Shown: one piece after another, positions 26,725 to 53,144 of the stretch
Numbering within the stretch: position 1 is the stretch's first letter
Layout of the letters: each line of letters starts with the position of its first letter
Source of the DNA: an uncultured Anaerolineaceae bacterium
GTDB taxonomy: Bacteria; Chloroflexota; Anaerolineae; Anaerolineales; Anaerolineaceae
Direction of reading: 5' to 3'
DNA length: 64,000 nucleotides
NCBI GenBank assembly: GCA_964536465.1
Contig: CAZHXQ010000001.1
Location: 6,913 to 70,912, forward strand
The notes under the pieces: model-generated
The model's database searches: none
Seen by the model: the letters and a program-made list of their open reading frames with translations, nothing else
What the model was told of the DNA's origin: nothing
Made by a program: the position numbers and the translations under genes

Positions 26725-26752
26725 TTGACATCCGTACCATTTTGCTTATAAT
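26725..26752 (+). promoter_or_regulatory. Consensus sigma70 promoter heading the glycan locus
   Basis: TTGACA (26725-26730), a 16-nt spacer, then TATAAT (26747-26752). The ATG of the regulator lies only 17 nt downstream of the -10, so the leader is very short or absent. Confidence 0.55.
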
Positions 26753-26768
26753 TCAAAAACTGAATTAT

Positions 26769-27302
26769 ATGGAAAACGAATTTACCACCGAAGAATCCAC
26801 TCGCGCGCTCGAGATGCTCACACACATCGAAGCCGACCCTGATATCAACCAGCTAACCCTGGCAAATGAGCTCGGGGTTGCCGTAGGTACCATCAACTGG
26901 CATCTCAAACGCATGATTGCCAAGGGCTACATTAAGGTCAAGCGCGCTCAACGCAAAAAATTGCGCTATATCATCACGCCTGAAGGCATCGCTTTGCGAG
27001 CAGCCCTGACTGTCGACTACATCAAAAACTCATTTGACCTCTATCGCCGCGTCCGCGAACGCACCAACCTCTGCCTCGAACGACTGCAAGAGACCGGTTA
27101 TCAGAGCGTTTACGTGCCTGGTGAGGACGAGGTAGCCGAAGTTGTTCGTTTGACCTGTCTGGAGCAGGGTGTCACGCTTACAAACAACCCACAAGACCCT
27201 CAAATCCATATTGAAGGTATTAAACTTGCACTACAATTACCAGAGGTTGCGCATGATTCCGCAGCCACTTTTAAAGACATACATCGAGGTGATCATGGAT
27301 AA
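26769..27302 (+). CDS. Winged-helix (MarR-like) transcriptional regulator
   Basis: I place the start at ATG 26769, because the ORF-track start 26742 lies inside the promoter. The wHTH is [48 protein letters not shown]. Confidence 0.7.
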
Positions 27303-28254
27303 GGAATTGGACCTTTCCACCCAACGCGTCTGCGTTACAGGTGGCGCCGGCTTTTTAGGCACACATCTGATTAAAAAGCTGAAGGAACATGGCGCCACAG
27401 AAATATTCGTGCCGCAATACCCTGAGTATGACCTGGTCAAAGGCGCGGATGTCATCGGCATGATAGATGATGCCAGACCCGATGTGATCATACATCTGGC
27501 AGCCAAGGTCGGCGGGATTGGCGCAAATCGTGAAAAGCCGGGCGAGTTCTTCTATGACAACCTGATGATGGGCATTCAACTTATCCACCATGCCTGGCAG
27601 ATGGGTGTGGAAAAATTTGTCGCCATCGGAACCATTTGTGCTTACCCTAAATTCACCCCGATTCCATTCAAAGAAGAAGCCCTCTGGGAGGGTTACCCCG
27701 AAGAAACCAACGCGCCCTATGGGCTGGCCAAGAAGATGCTGCTGGTACAGTCGCAGGCTTATCGCGATCAATACGGTTACAACTCGATCTTCCTGCTGCC
27801 GGTCAACCTTTATGGTCCTGGTGACAATTTTGACCCCGCGAGCTCGCATGTTATCCCGGCGCTGATTCGCAAATGCCTGGAAGCCAAAGAGCAAGGTGCT
27901 AAAGAAATCATCGCCTGGGGGGATGGCTCTCCGACGCGCGAGTTTATCTATGTCGATGACGCCGCCGAAGGCATCACCCTGGCCACAATGCGCTACAACA
28001 GTTCTGACCCGGTCAACATTGGGTCAAGTTTTGAGATTTCAATTAAAGACTTAACGGAACTGATTGCCCGTTTGACCGGTTTCGAGGGCGAGGTACGTTG
28101 GGATACCAGCAAGCCAAACGGCCAACCCAGGCGTAAGCTTGACACCACTCGCGCCAAAGAACGTTTCGGATTCGAGGCAAAAACTAATTTTGAAGATGGA
28201 CTTCGCCGTACGATTGAATGGTATGCGAATGAAAGGGCACATGGCAGAGCCTAA
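27295..28254 (+). CDS. fcl: GDP-L-fucose synthase (GDP-4-keto-6-deoxy-D-mannose 3,5-epimerase/4-reductase)
   Basis: Start at ATG 27295 (MDKELDL..), overlapping the regulator stop. Motifs [30 protein letters not shown] and [10 protein letters not shown], plus the [10 protein letters not shown] tail, match recalled Fcl/WcaG sequences. Confidence 0.85.
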
Positions 28255-50528: not shown

Positions 50529-51323
50529 ATGGATAGGTCTCTACAGGATCGTTTCATGAATCTGGCCCGACGTGGCTATGACGGCTTACGCCGTCTGCCC
50601 GAGCTGCCTGCAGCATATCTGCACCCTTGGCGAAGAGAATCAAAACGCCGCCTGACAGCTCTTAAAGATAGCCACGAGGGTGAACGCTGCTTTGTGGTTG
50701 GTAATGGGCCTTCACTAAAAAATACGGATTTATCCAGGCTTGAGGATGAGTTTTGTATCGGCATGAACCGCATCTTTTTAGCCGCGGATGAGTTAGGTTT
50801 TTGTCCGGATATCCTGGTCTGTGTCAATGACCTGGTAGTTGAACAGTCGGTGGCGGAATTCAACAATCTGCAAATGCCAAAATTTTTCTCCTGGCGCGCG
50901 CGTAAGTGGTTGACAATGGACCACTGGACACACTTTATTTACACCACCTACACCTCTCCAAAATTTTCAACAGATGTAACCGGCAGAGTCTGGGAAGGCG
51001 CAACGGTGACCAATGTTTGCCTGCAGCTGGCCTATCACATGGGCTTTAATGAAGTCATCTTGATCGGCGTGGATCACAGTTTCGCCACCAAGGGTCAACC
51101 CAACACCACCATACAGTCTCAGGGGGATGACCCAAACCACTTCTCAACCTCTTATTTCGGCAAAGGCTTCCGCTGGCAATTACCAGACCTTGAGACCTCA
51201 GAGTTGGGCTACCGCATGGCTCGTCGAGCCTATGAAAACGCCGGCCGAAAAATCGTCGATGCTACTATCGGCGGAAAACTGGATATCTTCGAAAAAGTTG
51301 ATTACGACAGCTTGTTTACTTAA
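50529..51323 (+). CDS. DUF115/MptE-like protein related to GT42 sialyltransferases and Maf flagellin nonulosonate transferases
   Basis: CFVVGNGPSLKNTDLSRLEDEFCIGMNRIF parallels the recalled CstII N-terminus (IAGNGPSLKEIDYSRLPNDFDVFRCNQFYF). ILIGVDHSF parallels YLSGIDFY. Confidence 0.6.
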   Translation: MDRSLQDRFMNLARRGYDGLRRLPELPAAYLHPWRRESKRRLTALKDSHEGERCFVVGNGPSLKNTDLSRLEDEFCIGMNRIFLAADELGFCPDILVCVNDLVVEQSVAEFNNLQMPKFFSWRARKWLTMDHWTHFIYTTYTSPKFSTDVTGRVWEGATVTNVCLQLAYHMGFNEVILIGVDHSFATKGQPNTTIQSQGDDPNHFSTSYFGKGFRWQLPDLETSELGYRMARRAYENAGRKIVDATIGGKLDIFEKVDYDSLFT

Positions 51324-51414
51324 AAACCCTCTCAGCGCTGCTGGGGCGTTGGGTTACCCGCCAGATTCCCGAAAGAACAGAAACCCCATTTCAAAGTTCA
51401 TATATAATTTGATC

Positions 51415-52365
51415 ATGACCTCACAACCCTTGGTTTCAATCATCACGCCTTCCTATAACCAGGCAGCCTTCCTTGAGCAGACGATGCTTTCTGTGTTGGA
51501 ACAGGATTATCCCAACATCGAGTACTGGGTGATTGATGGCGGTTCAACCGATGGTAGTGTTGAAATCATCGGGAAATATGCCCATGGGCTGGCGGGCTGG
51601 GTTTCTGAAAAAGATCGCGGTCAGGCGGATGGTGTCAACAAGGGCTTTGCTAAAGCCACGGGCGAAATTGTCGGCTGGTTGAACTCGGACGACCTCTACT
51701 ATTCTGGCGCGGTTTCTGATGCTGTGGAAGCTTTCCGTCAGCACCCCGATGCCAGTTTTGTTTTCAGCGATGTTGAGTCCATCGACGAACTAGGAGAGGG
51801 CTTCAACCTGATACGTTATGGCAATTGGAAGTTGAAAGACCTGATGAGCTTCAAAATCATTGGTCAGCCGGGTGTTTTCATGCGTCGTGAAATTCTCGAA
51901 CAAGCCGGCTACCTTGACCTCAGTTACAACTACCTGCTGGATGTGCAGCTATGGCTCAAGATGGCCGCCATAGCCGAACCACAATATATTCCTGGCAAGG
52001 TTTGGTCGGCAGCCCGCCTGCATTCGCAGGCTAAGAACGCCGCCCAGGCGGTCAATTTCGGGCCAGAAGCCTTCCGTCTGGCCAAATGGCTATGTGAAGA
52101 CGAACGCTTTTACCCCTTGAATTCCCAACTCTTTAATAAAATCTGGGCCGGCGCCCACCGACTAAACGGCTTCTATCTGGTTGAAGCGGGAGATTTCAAG
52201 GCAGCACTCAAAGCCTACCGTCAAATGCTGCGTTATGAGCCGCTCCCAGATGGCAAAACTCTCAGACGCATGGCCTATGCGGGGTTTGCCGCGCTTGGGC
52301 TGCTGCGTTCACGTGCCTGGTACGACCAAAGTCGCAAAGACCGATATACAGGCGGACGCAGATGA
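51415..52365 (+). CDS. Glycosyltransferase family 2
   Basis: Start at ATG 51415. VSIITPSYNQAAFLEQTMLSVLEQDYPNIEYWVIDGGSTDGS and WLNSDD. Confidence 0.8.
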   Translation: MTSQPLVSIITPSYNQAAFLEQTMLSVLEQDYPNIEYWVIDGGSTDGSVEIIGKYAHGLAGWVSEKDRGQADGVNKGFAKATGEIVGWLNSDDLYYSGAVSDAVEAFRQHPDASFVFSDVESIDELGEGFNLIRYGNWKLKDLMSFKIIGQPGVFMRREILEQAGYLDLSYNYLLDVQLWLKMAAIAEPQYIPGKVWSAARLHSQAKNAAQAVNFGPEAFRLAKWLCEDERFYPLNSQLFNKIWAGAHRLNGFYLVEAGDFKAALKAYRQMLRYEPLPDGKTLRRMAYAGFAALGLLRSRAWYDQSRKDRYTGGRR

Positions 52366-53144
52366 ACCCCAAGCCGTTGCCCAAAGTCAGTGTAATCACC
52401 CCGTCTTTTAATCAGGCGCGGTTCCTGGAAGAGACCATGCTCTCCGTGCTGGAACAGGACTACCCAAACATCGAATATATCGTGATCGATGGTGCTTCCA
52501 GTGATGGCAGTCTGGAAATTATTCAGAAATACGCTGACCGCCTGGCATATTGGCAAAGCAGGAAGGACCAGGGGCAGACTGACGCGATCAACCAGGGTTT
52601 CTCCCACGCCACCGGTGAGATTTTCGCCTGGTTGAACTCGGACGATGTGCTCTATCCCGGCGCGGTTAGCGCTGCTGTGCAGCAGCTTGAAGAGCATCCT
52701 GAGATTGGTATGGTCTATGCCGATTGCCATTGGATCAACGCGGAAGGCAAGGTCATCGGCAATTTCCCGGCCGCTCAAACTGATTTGAGAAAACTTCGTC
52801 GTGGCTATGTTCATATTCCTCAACAAACGGCCTTTTTCCGGGCGGAACTATGGAAAAAAGTTGGTCCACTTGATGACAGTTTTTACTTTGCCATGGATTA
52901 TGACCTGTGGACACGCCTGGCAGCCCAGGCGCCTCTTCTGTATGTGCCACAGTTATGGGCTGCTTTTCGCCTGCACCAGGGCGCGAAATCGATTGCCGAG
53001 GATGATCGCTGTTGGCCTGAAATGCTGCGCGTGCACTATCGAGACGGTGGCAAGAAAATCTCGCTTCTGACTGCCAAGTATTGGCTCCGCAGGCTGGTAC
53101 AACCGCTCTGGATCTGGCTGCGCAGACAGCGCATCAGAAATTGA
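52362..53144 (+). CDS. Glycosyltransferase family 2 (tandem paralog)
   Basis: VSVITPSFNQARFLEETMLSVLEQDYPNIEYIVIDGASSDGS and WLNSDD. It overlaps the previous gene by 4 nt and is the last gene of the locus. Confidence 0.8.
   Translation: MNPKPLPKVSVITPSFNQARFLEETMLSVLEQDYPNIEYIVIDGASSDGSLEIIQKYADRLAYWQSRKDQGQTDAINQGFSHATGEIFAWLNSDDVLYPGAVSAAVQQLEEHPEIGMVYADCHWINAEGKVIGNFPAAQTDLRKLRRGYVHIPQQTAFFRAELWKKVGPLDDSFYFAMDYDLWTRLAAQAPLLYVPQLWAAFRLHQGAKSIAEDDRCWPEMLRVHYRDGGKKISLLTAKYWLRRLVQPLWIWLRRQRIRN

Follow-up and report, generated by a model that had tools for sequence, protein, structure and literature searches.

Anaerolineaceae (Chloroflexota) are filamentous, anaerobic bacteria that are often found in digesters and sediments. 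In an uncultured member of this family, the 64-kb stretch of DNA analyzed here (the window) carries a long glycan locus with two NeuB-family synthases, which raises the question of what polymer can be built and exported by a gene set in which amino-sugar tailoring functions are missing.

Operon architecture and gene content

ORF listing and translation revealed 26 consecutive plus-strand ORFs from 26742 or 26769 to 53144, in agreement with the first-pass annotation, which had described 26 same-strand genes behind a consensus promoter (26725-53144). The promoter matched the consensus at 12/12 positions, with TTGACA (26725), a 16-nt spacer and TATAAT (26752), and was the sole perfect match within 25000-55000 (~30 kb). 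Because it lies inside a TTG-started ORF, the true start of g1 is the ATG at 26769, found 17 nt after the -10 box and also used in public gene calls. Refined starts gave intergenic gaps of -59 to +24 nt, barring larger ones at g15/g16 (48 nt), g22/g23 (52 nt), g23/g24 (36 or 9 nt, set by the choice of start) and g24/g25 (91 nt), the start of g25 (51415) being taken from a 316-aa public gene call. These values come close to those proposed earlier (mostly -14 to +14 nt, with three gaps of ~50-90 nt). The 3' neighbour of the operon is a convergent EamA gene (53162-54058). The promoter, regulator, export and early genes are as follows:

26725..26752, + strand: sigma-70-type promoter, TTGACA-16 nt-TATAAT
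26769..27302, + strand: g1, winged-helix regulator, MarR/EPS-associated type (HTH_24, 9.4e-12; TIGR04176 MarR_EPS, 64 bits, below the cut-off of 88)
27295..28254, + strand: g2, Fcl-like extended SDR, 3,5-epimerase/4-reductase type (Epimerase, 1.6e-55; GDP-L-fucose synthase model, 304 bits, below 500)
28196..29086, + strand: g3, Wzm, ABC-2 permease (ABC2_membrane, 82 bits; weakly similar to Wzm/RfbD and KpsM models)
29088..30362, + strand: g4, Wzt ATPase, carbohydrate-binding domain at the C-terminus (ABC_tran, 76 bits; Wzt_C, 37.7 bits, above 30.4; top NCBIfam matches, TagH/Wzt models)
32011..32904, + strand: g6, SAM-dependent methyltransferase (Methyltransf_11, 2.8e-13)

Domain content was assigned by Pfam and NCBIfam profile searches, which identified two NeuB, three CTP_transf_3, Gfo/Idh/MocA, two SDR, 2-Hacid_dh and radical SAM/SPASM proteins. 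The transferases comprised one GT4, three GT2, one cryptic GT-A (g13), two Capsule_synth and one MptE-like protein, and the Wzt_C, Capsule_synth and MptE-like matches were all above Pfam cut-offs. The domain list given earlier was confirmed, save that there are two methyltransferase domains and not three; the two proteins it called KpsC/S-like do match Capsule_synth and are refined here to HP-motif GT-B paralogues.

Family-wide conservation and missing genes

Two modules can be distinguished: module A, consisting of PseB, an RmlD-like reductase, NeuB with a SAF domain, a GT4, a cytidylyltransferase and the cryptic GT-A; and module B, whose core is a SAF-less NeuB and a CMP-synthetase with a fused KdsC-type phosphatase. 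The central gene, g13, has relatives in no fewer than 576 GTDB species genomes, and the best 80 loci were all from Anaerolineaceae, amongst them the isolates Ornatilinea and Levilinea; the Pelolinea locus is syntenic too. Presence was counted over 57 long Anaerolineaceae loci and contiguity over 61 loci. The operon is real and family-conserved, with median identities in relatives of 71% for g4 and 74% for g7, and its layout is a standard family-wide Anaerolineaceae locus, not a one-off, a point missed by the first-pass annotation. So was the finding that module B is an exchangeable cassette: in four relatives a NeuC-containing cassette stands in its place, with g20, g21, g23, g24, g15 and g16 lost together and g5 kept.

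Across the whole 64-kb window, the profile searches found no DegT-type aminotransferase (PseC/LegC), PseH/NeuD-kind acetyltransferase, Epimerase_2 (NeuC) or Glyco_tran_28_C (PseG), and no Wzx/Wzy, WecA/WbaP-type transferase, ligase or OTase; gmd was likewise absent from the window. The absences listed in the first-pass annotation were thus upheld, but its view that a missing initiating transferase, Wzx/Wzy and ligase are remarkable was not, since this is usual for ABC-dependent loci, for which initiation and ligation are commonly encoded at unlinked sites (wecA, tagO, LCP genes). In related Anaerolineaceae loci, GT-C enzymes (PMT_2, YfhO-like) were observed within the cluster.

Genes such as pseC, pseH, pseG, nanE, gmd and those for the initiating transferase and ligase could be located elsewhere in the genome, the searches having covered the window and 10 kb on either side of related loci. 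However, no aminotransferase or acetyltransferase was amongst the families recurring within those 10 kb, and NeuC lies inside the cluster in the four NeuC-cassette loci, which argues that required precursor genes tend to cluster here.

Two nonulosonate modules

The module B genes, and those that lie around them, are the following:

41340..42341, + strand: g15, Gfo/Idh/MocA oxidoreductase (GFO_IDH_MocA N- and C-terminal domains)
42390..43217, + strand: g16, classical SDR (adh_short_C2, 2.7e-50)
43211..44449, + strand: g17, CMP-nonulosonate synthetase-KdsC-type HAD phosphatase fusion (CTP_transf_3 and Hydrolase_3)
44474..45535, + strand: g18, radical SAM/SPASM (twitch) enzyme (CNMRCEMC motif; SPASM, 49 bits)
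45544..46419, + strand: g19, NeuB-family synthase 2, without SAF domain (NeuB, 249 bits)
46421..48043, + strand: g20, KpsC/KpsS-like GT-B with HP motif RAHPDE (Capsule_synth, 26.7 bits, above 20)
48040..48720, + strand: g21, third cytidylyltransferase, NeuA-like (CTP_transf_3, 1.5e-31)
48722..49702, + strand: g22, D-2-hydroxyacid dehydrogenase (2-Hacid_dh_C, 194.5 bits; below the cut-offs of the PGDH and glyoxylate reductase models)
49755..50519, + strand: g23, classical SDR (adh_short_C2, 1e-52)
50556..51323, + strand: g24, MptE-like/DUF115 protein (MptE-like, 67.8 bits, above 34.6)

The synthase g19 scored under the NeuB and PseI cut-offs, shares 28% identity with g9 and had PDB matches to CjPseI and to 6ncs, a sialic acid synthetase of 290 aa. 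It adjoins the fusion g17, which scored 161 bits against PseF (cut-off 205) and whose phosphatase half was below every equivalog cut-off (KdsC, 113 against 208; Kdn-9-P phosphatase, 89 against 180). PDB matches of g17 were 3mmz, KdsC and BT1713 (3e81), the latter two to the phosphatase half, and its DFDGV and GNDxxD catalytic motifs were invariant in 50/50 homologues. A NeuB paired with a phosphatase-fused cytidylyltransferase fits the Kdn/Neu5Ac-9-phosphate type of route (PMC6200933). Bacteroides thetaiotaomicron and Prymnesium have an established pathway of this kind, which leads from Man-6-P via Kdn-9-P and Kdn to CMP-Kdn (PMC6200933). A phosphorylated Kdn-type route, in which amino-sugar tailoring is not needed, is what we consider a fairly probable reading of module B, with the limit that Kdn and Neu5Ac (made via ManNAc-6-P) look the same by sequence. 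NeuB2 (g19) would condense a hexose-6-phosphate, most likely mannose-6-P, with PEP, g17 would dephosphorylate and CMP-activate the product, and g20 would transfer the Kdn-type acid, so that aminotransferase, acetyltransferase and NeuC would all be unneeded.

The redox enzymes g15, g16, g22 and g23 may tailor this product, with g18 joining them in some strains. The gene g15 is found together with the NeuB2-type module and is missing from swapped loci. The auxiliary-cluster region of g18 (GC 0.455) matched BtrN (2.8e-10), and the gene was present in 11/57 loci; it is an optional accessory of tailoring type, which had been overlooked previously. The candidate transferase g20 was far below the BFO_1060 cut-off (33 bits against 200); its AF2 model (pLDDT 83.7) gave a GT-B fold in Foldseek with KpsC as best TM-score (0.50-0.52), although UDP-GlcNAc 2-epimerases with poor TM-scores ranked ahead of KpsC by E-value. 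The top PDB match of g21 was the CMP-Kdn synthetase PpNeuA (9t4z, 1.8e-19), and g24, a candidate GT42-like ulosonate transferase, showed a local GNGPSLK match only to the CstII N-terminus (E ~0.1).

The module A genes, with g5 and g11, are these:

30368..32014, + strand: g5, KpsC/KpsS-like GT-B with HP motif RVHPGE (Capsule_synth, 24.1 bits, above 20; BFO_1060 family, 27 bits, far below 200)
32907..33917, + strand: g7, PseB, inverting UDP-GlcNAc 4,6-dehydratase (TIGR03589, 497.7 bits, above 407.75; FnlA, 282 bits, below 730)
33919..34839, + strand: g8, RmlD-fold 4-ketoreductase (RmlD_sub_bind, 197.9 bits; rmlD equivalog, 190.8 bits, below 224)
34851..35918, + strand: g9, NeuB-family synthase 1, with SAF domain (NeuB, 230.8 bits, and SAF)
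35922..37022, + strand: g10, GT4 (GT-B) glycosyltransferase (Glycos_transf_1, 4e-29)
37024..37656, + strand: g11, small lipoprotein-like protein without a known family (signal peptide and Cys lipobox, LLVVTAC)
37671..39374, + strand: g12, cytidylyltransferase (KdsB/SpsF-like)-methyltransferase fusion (CTP_transf_3, 1.8e-36; Methyltransf_23, 1.6e-16)
39371..40321, + strand: g13, cryptic glycosyltransferase, a conserved GT-A-fold protein outside any family (AF2 pLDDT 83.7)

The block of PseB, reductase and NeuB1 was contiguous in 58/61 loci, without aminotransferase or acetyltransferase. Matches of g8 were to PDB dTDP-4-dehydrorhamnose reductases, with GxxGxxG and YxxxK motifs seen in the sequence, and g9 was under the NeuB (267 against 399) and PseI (240 against 340) cut-offs, at about equal distance from NmNeuB, SpsE and CjPseI. 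From UDP-GlcNAc, PseB would yield a 4-keto-6-deoxy-L intermediate, which g8 would reduce at C4 in place of PseC transamination; a hydrolase would free 6-deoxy-L-HexNAc, NeuB1 would join it to PEP, g12 would activate the acid and g5 would transfer it. The predicted 7-hydroxy product, 5-acetamido-7-hydroxy-3,5,9-trideoxy-nonulosonic acid, is put forward only tentatively. No UDP-sugar hydrolase was identified for module A, g10 and g13 being candidates. An alternative is that the PseB and 4-reductase pair makes UDP-6-deoxy-L-HexNAc that a glycosyltransferase uses directly, a role in which such pairs are also known; the recurrent contiguity of NeuB1 with this pair is consistent with the ulosonic acid route. 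The earlier proposal of non-5,7-diamino acids is therefore well supported for module B and plausible, though unproven, for module A.

Amongst the other genes in this list, g10 was in 55/57 loci, immediately 3' of NeuB1, and g5, a candidate ulosonate transferase for this module or a chain terminator, was 3' of wzt in 51/57 and retained in module-B-swapped loci. The paralogues g5 and g20 (26% identity) share HP and S/T-T-x-G-M-E motifs. The cytidylyltransferase of g12 matched PDB 6oew (1.5e-32); Pelolinea has a stand-alone cytidylyltransferase at this position, in contrast to the fusion here. Neither g11, restricted to closer relatives (25/57 loci), nor g13 had a Pfam or NCBIfam match, and Foldseek placed the g13 model with K4CP, AvpGT, TarP and WrtF (~1e-7, TM ~0.45).

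Proposed assembly and export of the glycan

The remaining glycosyltransferases are:

40321..41343, + strand: g14, GT2 glycosyltransferase (Glycos_transf_2, 2e-13)
51415..52365, + strand: g25, GT2 glycosyltransferase (Glycos_transf_2, 1.4e-27)
52362..53144, + strand: g26, GT2 glycosyltransferase that closes the operon (Glycos_transf_2, 1.7e-29)

In more distant genera g14 has just 31-36% identity, and a different GT2 and a TagF-like GT-B were seen there. About five GT-A/GT-B enzymes (g10, g13, g14, g25 and g26) would assemble the glycan at the cytoplasmic face, g6 and the C-terminal domain of g12 would add O-methyl groups, and two different CMP-activated nonulosonic acids would decorate or cap it. 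Wzm/Wzt would then export the glycan, the Wzt C-terminal domain probably reading the capped end, and the final acceptor may be wall, lipid or protein. The locus has two synthases but three cytidylyltransferases and as many candidate ulosonate transferases, so either at least one putative assignment to a module is incorrect or another source supplies a third acid.

The description of an ABC-transporter-dependent glycan locus with two nonulosonate modules holds, the modules being separate, and no characterized cluster matches the layout, as had been remarked. We regard the general picture of an envelope glycan with two CMP-activated nonulosonic acids and Wzm/Wzt export as quite probable, and the reading as a whole, with moderate confidence, as the best explanation of the locus. 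Purely as context, the high-molecular-weight EPS of anaerobic granular sludge is rich in Kdn and in acids of the Pse/Leg type (PMC10483923). Altogether, the most likely role of this operon is to make and export a sugar polymer of the cell surface with two sialic-acid-like sugars, both of which are most likely made by short, partly undescribed routes.

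Organization and conservation of the operon

The first-pass annotation had described 26 genes on one strand separated by short gaps. This layout was borne out by the six-frame ORF list and translations, which gave 26 consecutive forward-strand ORFs, the last ending at 53144 and directly followed by a convergent EamA gene. With refined start codons, the intergenic distances were very close to those first described, ranging from -59 to +24 nt with exceptions of 48, 52, 36 (or 9) and 91 nt, and the arrangement is operon-like. A promoter-like site with TTGACA at 26725, a spacing of 16 and TATAAT at 26752 matches the consensus at all 12 positions and is the sole perfect one within 25000-55000. 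Because this site falls within a TTG-started ORF, the start of the regulator gene g1 was placed at ATG 26769, which is also used in public gene calls. The operon and the features around it that are discussed here are as follows.

18719-20974, reverse strand: a BNR/Sortilin-like protein of 470 aa (borderline scores) adjoining a polysaccharide deacetylase
22318-22391, reverse strand: tRNA-Arg (anticodon GCG), 4.4 kb upstream of the operon
25395-26693, forward strand: an ORF of 432 aa just upstream of the operon promoter
26769-53144, forward strand: the operon, genes g1 to g26
53162-54058, convergent with the operon: the EamA gene
54170-56226, forward strand: an ArsR-type regulator, a small thioredoxin-like gene and an ArsP-type permease, with an 11/12 promoter match at 54207-54234
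56316-57500, reverse strand: an Aminotran_1_2 gene

The flanking genes are of the housekeeping kind (ComEC, NAD synthase, a RecN-like protein, GlgC, pyruvate:ferredoxin oxidoreductase, the ArsR operon, DegV and others). The GC content of the cluster is that of its flanks in the window and the same gene order occurs across genera, so that the idea of a recently acquired island is unsupported. The 432-aa ORF lies in a low-GC stretch (0.45-0.46), is Lys/Asn-rich and is conserved in metagenome contigs of the same species. Its product was dropped as a candidate ligase or polymerase, since it has a single, N-terminal transmembrane helix and profile scans placed it in no Pfam or NCBIfam family. Likewise, the Aminotran_1_2 gene, set apart from the operon by the EamA gene and the ArsR operon, encodes a class I/II aminotransferase and was rejected as a PseC-type enzyme. 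Rfam and ARAGORN scans of the window returned nothing besides the tRNA-Arg.

The whole window was covered by the precomputed Pfam annotation of identical contigs and by our own Pfam and NCBIfam scans, which reproduced the earlier gene list almost item by item; of the two to three methyltransferase domains in that list, two were found, not three. Three CTP_transf_3 cytidylyltransferases (g12, g17 and g21) and three candidate ulosonate transferases (g5, g20 and g24) stand against two synthases. The Fcl-like g2 (present without gmd), the Gfo/Idh/MocA oxidoreductase g15, the short-chain dehydrogenases g16 and g23 and the 2-hydroxyacid dehydrogenase g22 have roles predicted at family level. The same scans found no DegT-type aminotransferase, no PseH/NeuD-type (GNAT/LbH) acetyltransferase and no Epimerase_2 or PseG within the 64-kb window, nor any match to PseG/Glyco_tran_28_C in the cluster. 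Wzx/Wzy, an initiating transferase of the WecA/TagO or WbaP type, a ligase, an oligosaccharyltransferase, a GT-C or Wzy_C gene and a KdsA-type synthase are likewise absent from the 64 kb, and no S-layer protein gene was seen near the operon. The gaps in the amino-sugar and assembly genes noted at first pass are thus real at the scale of the window, and we judge the missing initiation and ligation genes, which had been raised as a point of interest, to be unremarkable.

Homologues of the radical SAM/SPASM protein g18 are labelled Anaerolineaceae; that of Pelolinea submarina is 74% identical and the Pelolinea locus has the same gene order as the window. Many metagenome assemblies contain identical proteins in the same gene neighbourhood. 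When an alignment of g13, a cryptic GT-A protein, was compared with one genome per GTDB species, relatives were found in at least 576 genomes, the best 80 of which are all Anaerolineaceae, including Ornatilinea apprima, Levilinea saccharolytica, Bellilinea, Brevefilum, Leptolinea, Longilinea and Anaerolinea. A tblastn matrix of 57 loci of at least 18 kb defined a conserved core of wzm, wzt, the KpsC-like g5, the methyltransferase g6, PseB, the reductase, NeuB1, the GT4 enzyme, g13, GT2, Gfo, SDR, g17, NeuB2 and g20 to g24. Conservation is highest for PseB, NeuB1, NeuB2 and Wzt (median identity 71-74%). This conserved order and core indicate a standard family-wide envelope-glycan locus and not a single-genome peculiarity. 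Related loci also hold PMT_2 and YfhO-like GT-C enzymes in the cluster and, in 33 cases, a TagF-like GT-B protein of about 480 aa that follows the g13/GT2 genes in more distant genera (e.g., 2841-4286 of related locus L046). The TagF-type match is borderline (22.0 bits against a cut-off of 22.1) and the window holds no counterpart of this protein. The variable presence of the GT-C and TagF-like genes suggests that the backbone glycosyltransferases differ between genera while the ulosonate modules stay.

Export and candidate ulosonate transferases

The ABC-2 permease g3 (ABC2_membrane, 82 bits) and the ATPase g4 (ABC_tran, 76 bits) are adjacent in the relatives too, and the Wzt_C domain of g4 scored 37.7 bits, above the cut-off of 30.4. 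Together with the two NeuB modules, this supports the ABC-dependent route and the two ulosonate branches proposed at first pass. Candidate chain terminators are present as the methyltransferases g6 and g12 and the transferase g5. A capped chain is suggested by Wzm/Wzt carrying Wzt_C, by the methyltransferases and by the KpsC-like transferase, which immediately follows wzt. Comparable systems are those of E. coli O9a (WbdD), Raoultella/Klebsiella O12 (WbbB, with its beta-Kdo cap) and the Geobacillus S-layer glycan (slg), which the locus resembles in Wzm and Wzt_C, in its methyltransferases and the position of g5, and in having no Wzx/Wzy. It differs from them in its Chloroflexota host, presumably without LPS, and in using nonulosonate donors rather than Kdo (no KdsA).

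The acceptor of the exported glycan could be peptidoglycan, a lipid or a surface protein. In actinomycetes, teichulosonic acids, which are Kdn-Gal polymers, partly methylated, are bound to peptidoglycan (PMC11481543), and the likeness to them is one of proposed product only: a monoderm-type wall polymer with Kdn and methyl groups. Here there would be two acids and a Wzt_C-type exporter; the umbrella-toxin/CglA papers give a teichulosonic acid structure and no gene list to compare. It is possible, though we lean against it, that the glycan, instead of forming a wall polymer, passes en bloc to an S-layer or sheath protein at the surface, following the model of the methyl-capped, ABC-dependent pathway of Geobacillus stearothermophilus. 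Wzm/Wzt with Wzt_C and the methyltransferases would suit such a product, as would the GT-C membrane enzymes (PMT_2, YfhO-like and other multi-TM proteins) of related loci, but GT-C enzymes decorate monoderm wall polymers too. The window itself contains no GT-C, Wzy_C or oligosaccharyltransferase gene and no S-layer protein gene was seen nearby, which speaks against protein transfer, whereas the BFO_1060 family, to which g5 and g20 are compared below, comes from a protein O-glycosylation system (PMC5420450).

The paralogues g5 and g20 (26% identity), proteins of 540-550 aa whose long N-terminal region is their own, both exceed the Pfam Capsule_synth cut-off (24.1 and 26.7 bits against 20). With the KpsC/KpsS beta-Kdo transferases and the Tannerella forsythia Pse/Leg transferases of the BFO_1060 family they share the GT-B fold, the HP motif, the S-T-x-G-x-E motif and the genomic coupling to CMP-ulosonate synthesis (PMC5420450). 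The difference lies in the scores, about 24-27 bits for Capsule_synth and, for BFO_1060 (NCBIfam NF046086), 27.4 and 33.3 bits against a cut-off of 200. The HP motif is invariant in 24/24 homologues of g20. A PDB sequence search with g20 found nothing, so that a structure model was needed. The AlphaFold model (pLDDT 83.7) has a GT-B fold and, in Foldseek, reached its best TM-scores with KpsC (0.50-0.52), whereas UDP-GlcNAc 2-epimerases gave lower E-values at TM-scores of 0.22-0.35. As the linked synthases are of the NeuB type and no KdsA is present, g5 and g20 are predicted to act like KpsC, but probably on nine-carbon acids.

The epimerase matches raise another reading, that g5 and g20 are the missing nucleotide-sugar hydrolase or 2-epimerase-type enzymes (NeuC/PseG analogues), one per module. 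NeuC is amongst the best Foldseek E-values, one homologue (P0294) carries a precomputed Epimerase_2 match and there is one paralogue per NeuB. We consider this reading very unlikely, given the poor TM-scores of the epimerases, the Capsule_synth matches above cut-off, the KpsC/KpsS-type and sialyltransferase-type motifs (PMC5420450) and a module B that is predicted to begin from a sugar phosphate and would require no hydrolase.

A third candidate transferase, g24, is MptE-like (67.8 bits against 34.6), and its match to CstII is a weak local one at a GNGPSLK motif (E about 0.1). The protein g13 belongs to no family. Its model has an ordinary GT-A fold, for which reason it was set aside as the missing hydrolase or as a new fold; judged from the model, it is most simply a glycosyltransferase, the fifth ordinary one, and a hydrolase role is also possible.

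Module B, a probable phosphorylated route in an exchangeable cassette

The protein g17 is a cytidylyltransferase fused to a KdsC-type HAD phosphatase whose domain matches KdsC, BT1713 and 3mmz, with HAD motifs (DFDGV, GNDxxD) invariant in 50/50 homologues. Against the Kdn-9-P phosphatase equivalog it scored 89 bits, below the cut-off of 180. The synthase g19 belongs to the NeuB family (249 bits, no SAF domain), and among solved structures the best relative of g21, which like g17 carries CTP_transf_3, is a CMP-Kdn synthetase. By analogy, this gene set matches the phosphorylated Kdn route established in Bacteroides thetaiotaomicron (BT1713-BT1715) and Prymnesium parvum, in which a NeuB-family synthase, a KdsC-type HAD phosphatase and a CMP-synthetase are likewise adjacent and aminotransferase, acetyltransferase and epimerase are all dispensable (PMC6200933). 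Module B would condense a hexose-6-phosphate with PEP, dephosphorylate the product and activate it with CMP, a route that requires none of the "missing" amino-sugar enzymes. It differs from the CMP-Kdn pathway in the fusion of phosphatase and cytidylyltransferase, in a synthase without SAF, in extra redox enzymes and an optional radical SAM protein, and in scores that all fall below equivalog cut-offs. With such scores the predicted acid may be Kdn, Neu5Ac or another acid, and by sequence Kdn and Neu5Ac (from ManNAc-6-P) are indistinguishable.

Module B behaves as an exchangeable cassette. Four related loci (L041, L076, L080 and L083) keep module A and lack g15, g16, g20, g21, g23 and g24. In place of NeuB2 they carry a NeuB only 28-30% identical to it, which adjoins a NeuC-type Epimerase_2, a phosphatase-less cytidylyltransferase and an AsnB-like amidotransferase (about 13000-19000 in each locus). 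The replacement looks like a pathway to an amidated or aminated acid. This pattern ties g20 to the module B acid and g5 to module A. Additionally, NeuC is encoded in the cluster where it is needed, an argument against placing the missing Pse genes elsewhere by default. In L083, two tandem multi-TM proteins (379 and 424 aa; 5447-7773) separate the reductase from NeuB1; a PseB homologue was not found in that locus.

The radical SAM gene g18 is present in only 11/57 related loci, and g18 and NeuB2 (44474-46419) have GC contents of 0.455 and 0.484 against about 0.52 in the remaining cluster. For these reasons it was rejected as a core step; g18 is an optional tailoring enzyme. Its identity of 72-90% across the family, despite this sparse presence, suggests that the gene moves between Anaerolineaceae clusters. 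Only its auxiliary-cluster domain resembles BtrN, a radical SAM sugar dehydrogenase.

Module A and the meaning of the locus

Module A opens with a true PseB equivalog: g7 scored 497.7 bits on TIGR03589 (cut-off 407.75) and 282 bits on the FnlA model (cut-off 730), making it PseB-type and not FnlA-type. The RmlD-fold reductase g8, as the reductase of an FnlA/WbvB-like pathway, is assigned at family level only. The SAF-bearing synthase g9 (NeuB1), which scores comparably on the PseI and NeuB models, and the SAF-less g19 both fall below the NeuB and PseI equivalog cut-offs (240 and 198 bits on PseI against 340). Since g9 and g19 are only 28% identical, they are old paralogues with presumably different substrates. 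The three cytidylyltransferases scored 161, 90 and 31 bits on the PseF model (cut-off 205.7). One of them, g12, is a KdsB/SpsF-like cytidylyltransferase fused to a methyltransferase. Public gene calls start it at 37755 (539 aa) and so lose the N-terminal nucleotide-binding motif KKVAIIQARLGSSRLPGK. Because Pfam CTP_transf_3 aligns KKVAIIQARLGSSRLPGK from model position 1, TTG 37671 is to be preferred as the start.

PseB, reductase and NeuB1 are adjacent on one strand in 58/61 related loci. From its gene families, the module looks like a pseudaminic acid pathway (PseB, C, H, G, I, F) in which an RmlD-fold 4-ketoreductase replaces PseC and PseH. A PseB equivalog, a SAF-bearing PseI/NeuB synthase and a cytidylyltransferase lie in one block as in that pathway, and the difference is that neither the window nor the 10 kb on each side of the related loci contains PseC, PseH or PseG. 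The reduced 6-deoxy-L-HexNAc, once released and condensed with PEP, would give 5-acetamido-7-hydroxy-3,5,9-trideoxy-nonulosonic acid, of which we found no description in the literature searched.

The same genes could instead serve ordinary 5,7-diamino pseudaminic acid, with pseC, pseH and pseG elsewhere in the genome and the RmlD-like reductase acting on another sugar. The full PseB equivalog and the even scores of g9 would allow this, and the gene search spanned the window and 10 kb either side of the related loci. Additionally, PseAc2/LegAc2 are dominant in anaerobic sludge EPS (PMC10483923). We nevertheless regard this explanation as unlikely in view of the contiguity of PseB, reductase and NeuB1, the lack of any DegT aminotransferase or acetyltransferase amongst the recurrent extra gene families within 10 kb either side of the related loci, and the cluster-encoded NeuC wherever a cassette requires it. 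A 4-ketoreductase between PseB and the synthase would also compete with PseC for the same PseB-derived intermediate.

Dehydratase and 4-reductase pairs such as WbvB/WbvR and FnlA/FnlB make 6-deoxy-HexNAc donors, as is also reported for the Bacillus cereus UDP-QuiNAc pathway (PMC4514872). PseB and the reductase might thus do no more than supply a UDP-2-acetamido-2,6-dideoxy-L-hexose (of the L-RhaNAc, L-QuiNAc or 6-deoxy-L-AltNAc type) for direct incorporation into the backbone by a glycosyltransferase, for instance the GT4 enzyme g10 directly behind NeuB1; the precursor of NeuB1 would then be an unrelated one (free mannose, ManNAc or another sugar phosphate). This is a possibility to be taken seriously rather than a probable one. 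No UDP-sugar hydrolase for module A was recognised in the cluster by Pfam or NCBIfam, which favours it. However, NeuB1, placed between reductase and GT4 in those 58 of 61 loci, would then be left without a cluster-encoded precursor, and the module matches PseB/(PseC+PseH)/PseG/PseI/PseF one for one. The WbvB/WbvR/WbvD and FnlA/B/C (CapE/F/G) systems share with the locus a Polysacc_synt_2 dehydratase followed by an RmlD-fold 4-reductase; here, in contrast, g7 is PseB-scoring, no 2-epimerase is present and a NeuB synthase lies directly behind the reductase.

Tentatively, we propose that the Anaerolineaceae, family-wide, may export through an ABC transporter a glycopolymer with an undescribed 7-hydroxy, 9-deoxy, 5-acetamido acid (C11H19NO8, 293.11 Da), made by a five-enzyme shortcut of the Pse pathway (a 4-ketoreductase for PseC and PseH, and a non-PseG release), plus a Kdn-type acid that would be radical-SAM-modified in some strains. 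Literature searches for PseB with a 4-reductase, Anaerolineae nonulosonic acids, NeuB with radical SAM, and sialic acid in the Chloroflexi envelope found no described equivalent; a SugarBase preprint reports that new CMP-ulosonates are still being discovered and contains nothing on Chloroflexota. Altogether, the original interpretation is well founded in its two ulosonate branches, its ABC route and, for module B, its non-amino acid, and its extension of non-canonical (non-5,7-diamino) acids to module A is unproven.

The component families are all known; their combination is uncharacterised and is retained throughout a major environmental family, and a new sugar may be among its products. Anaerolineaceae are amongst the most abundant filamentous bacteria of anaerobic digesters, granular sludge and sediments, and to our knowledge nothing is known of the chemistry of their envelope. 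We also know of very few characterised nonulosonate transferases, for which this locus would provide sequence handles. As a conserved Anaerolineaceae surface-glycan locus carried by three cultured species (Pelolinea submarina, Ornatilinea apprima and Levilinea saccharolytica), the operon is readily testable. Its study would reveal from which organism the Kdn and Pse/Leg-type acids measured in sludge EPS come, and also whether there is a new sialic-acid-like sugar with a shorter pathway leading to it.
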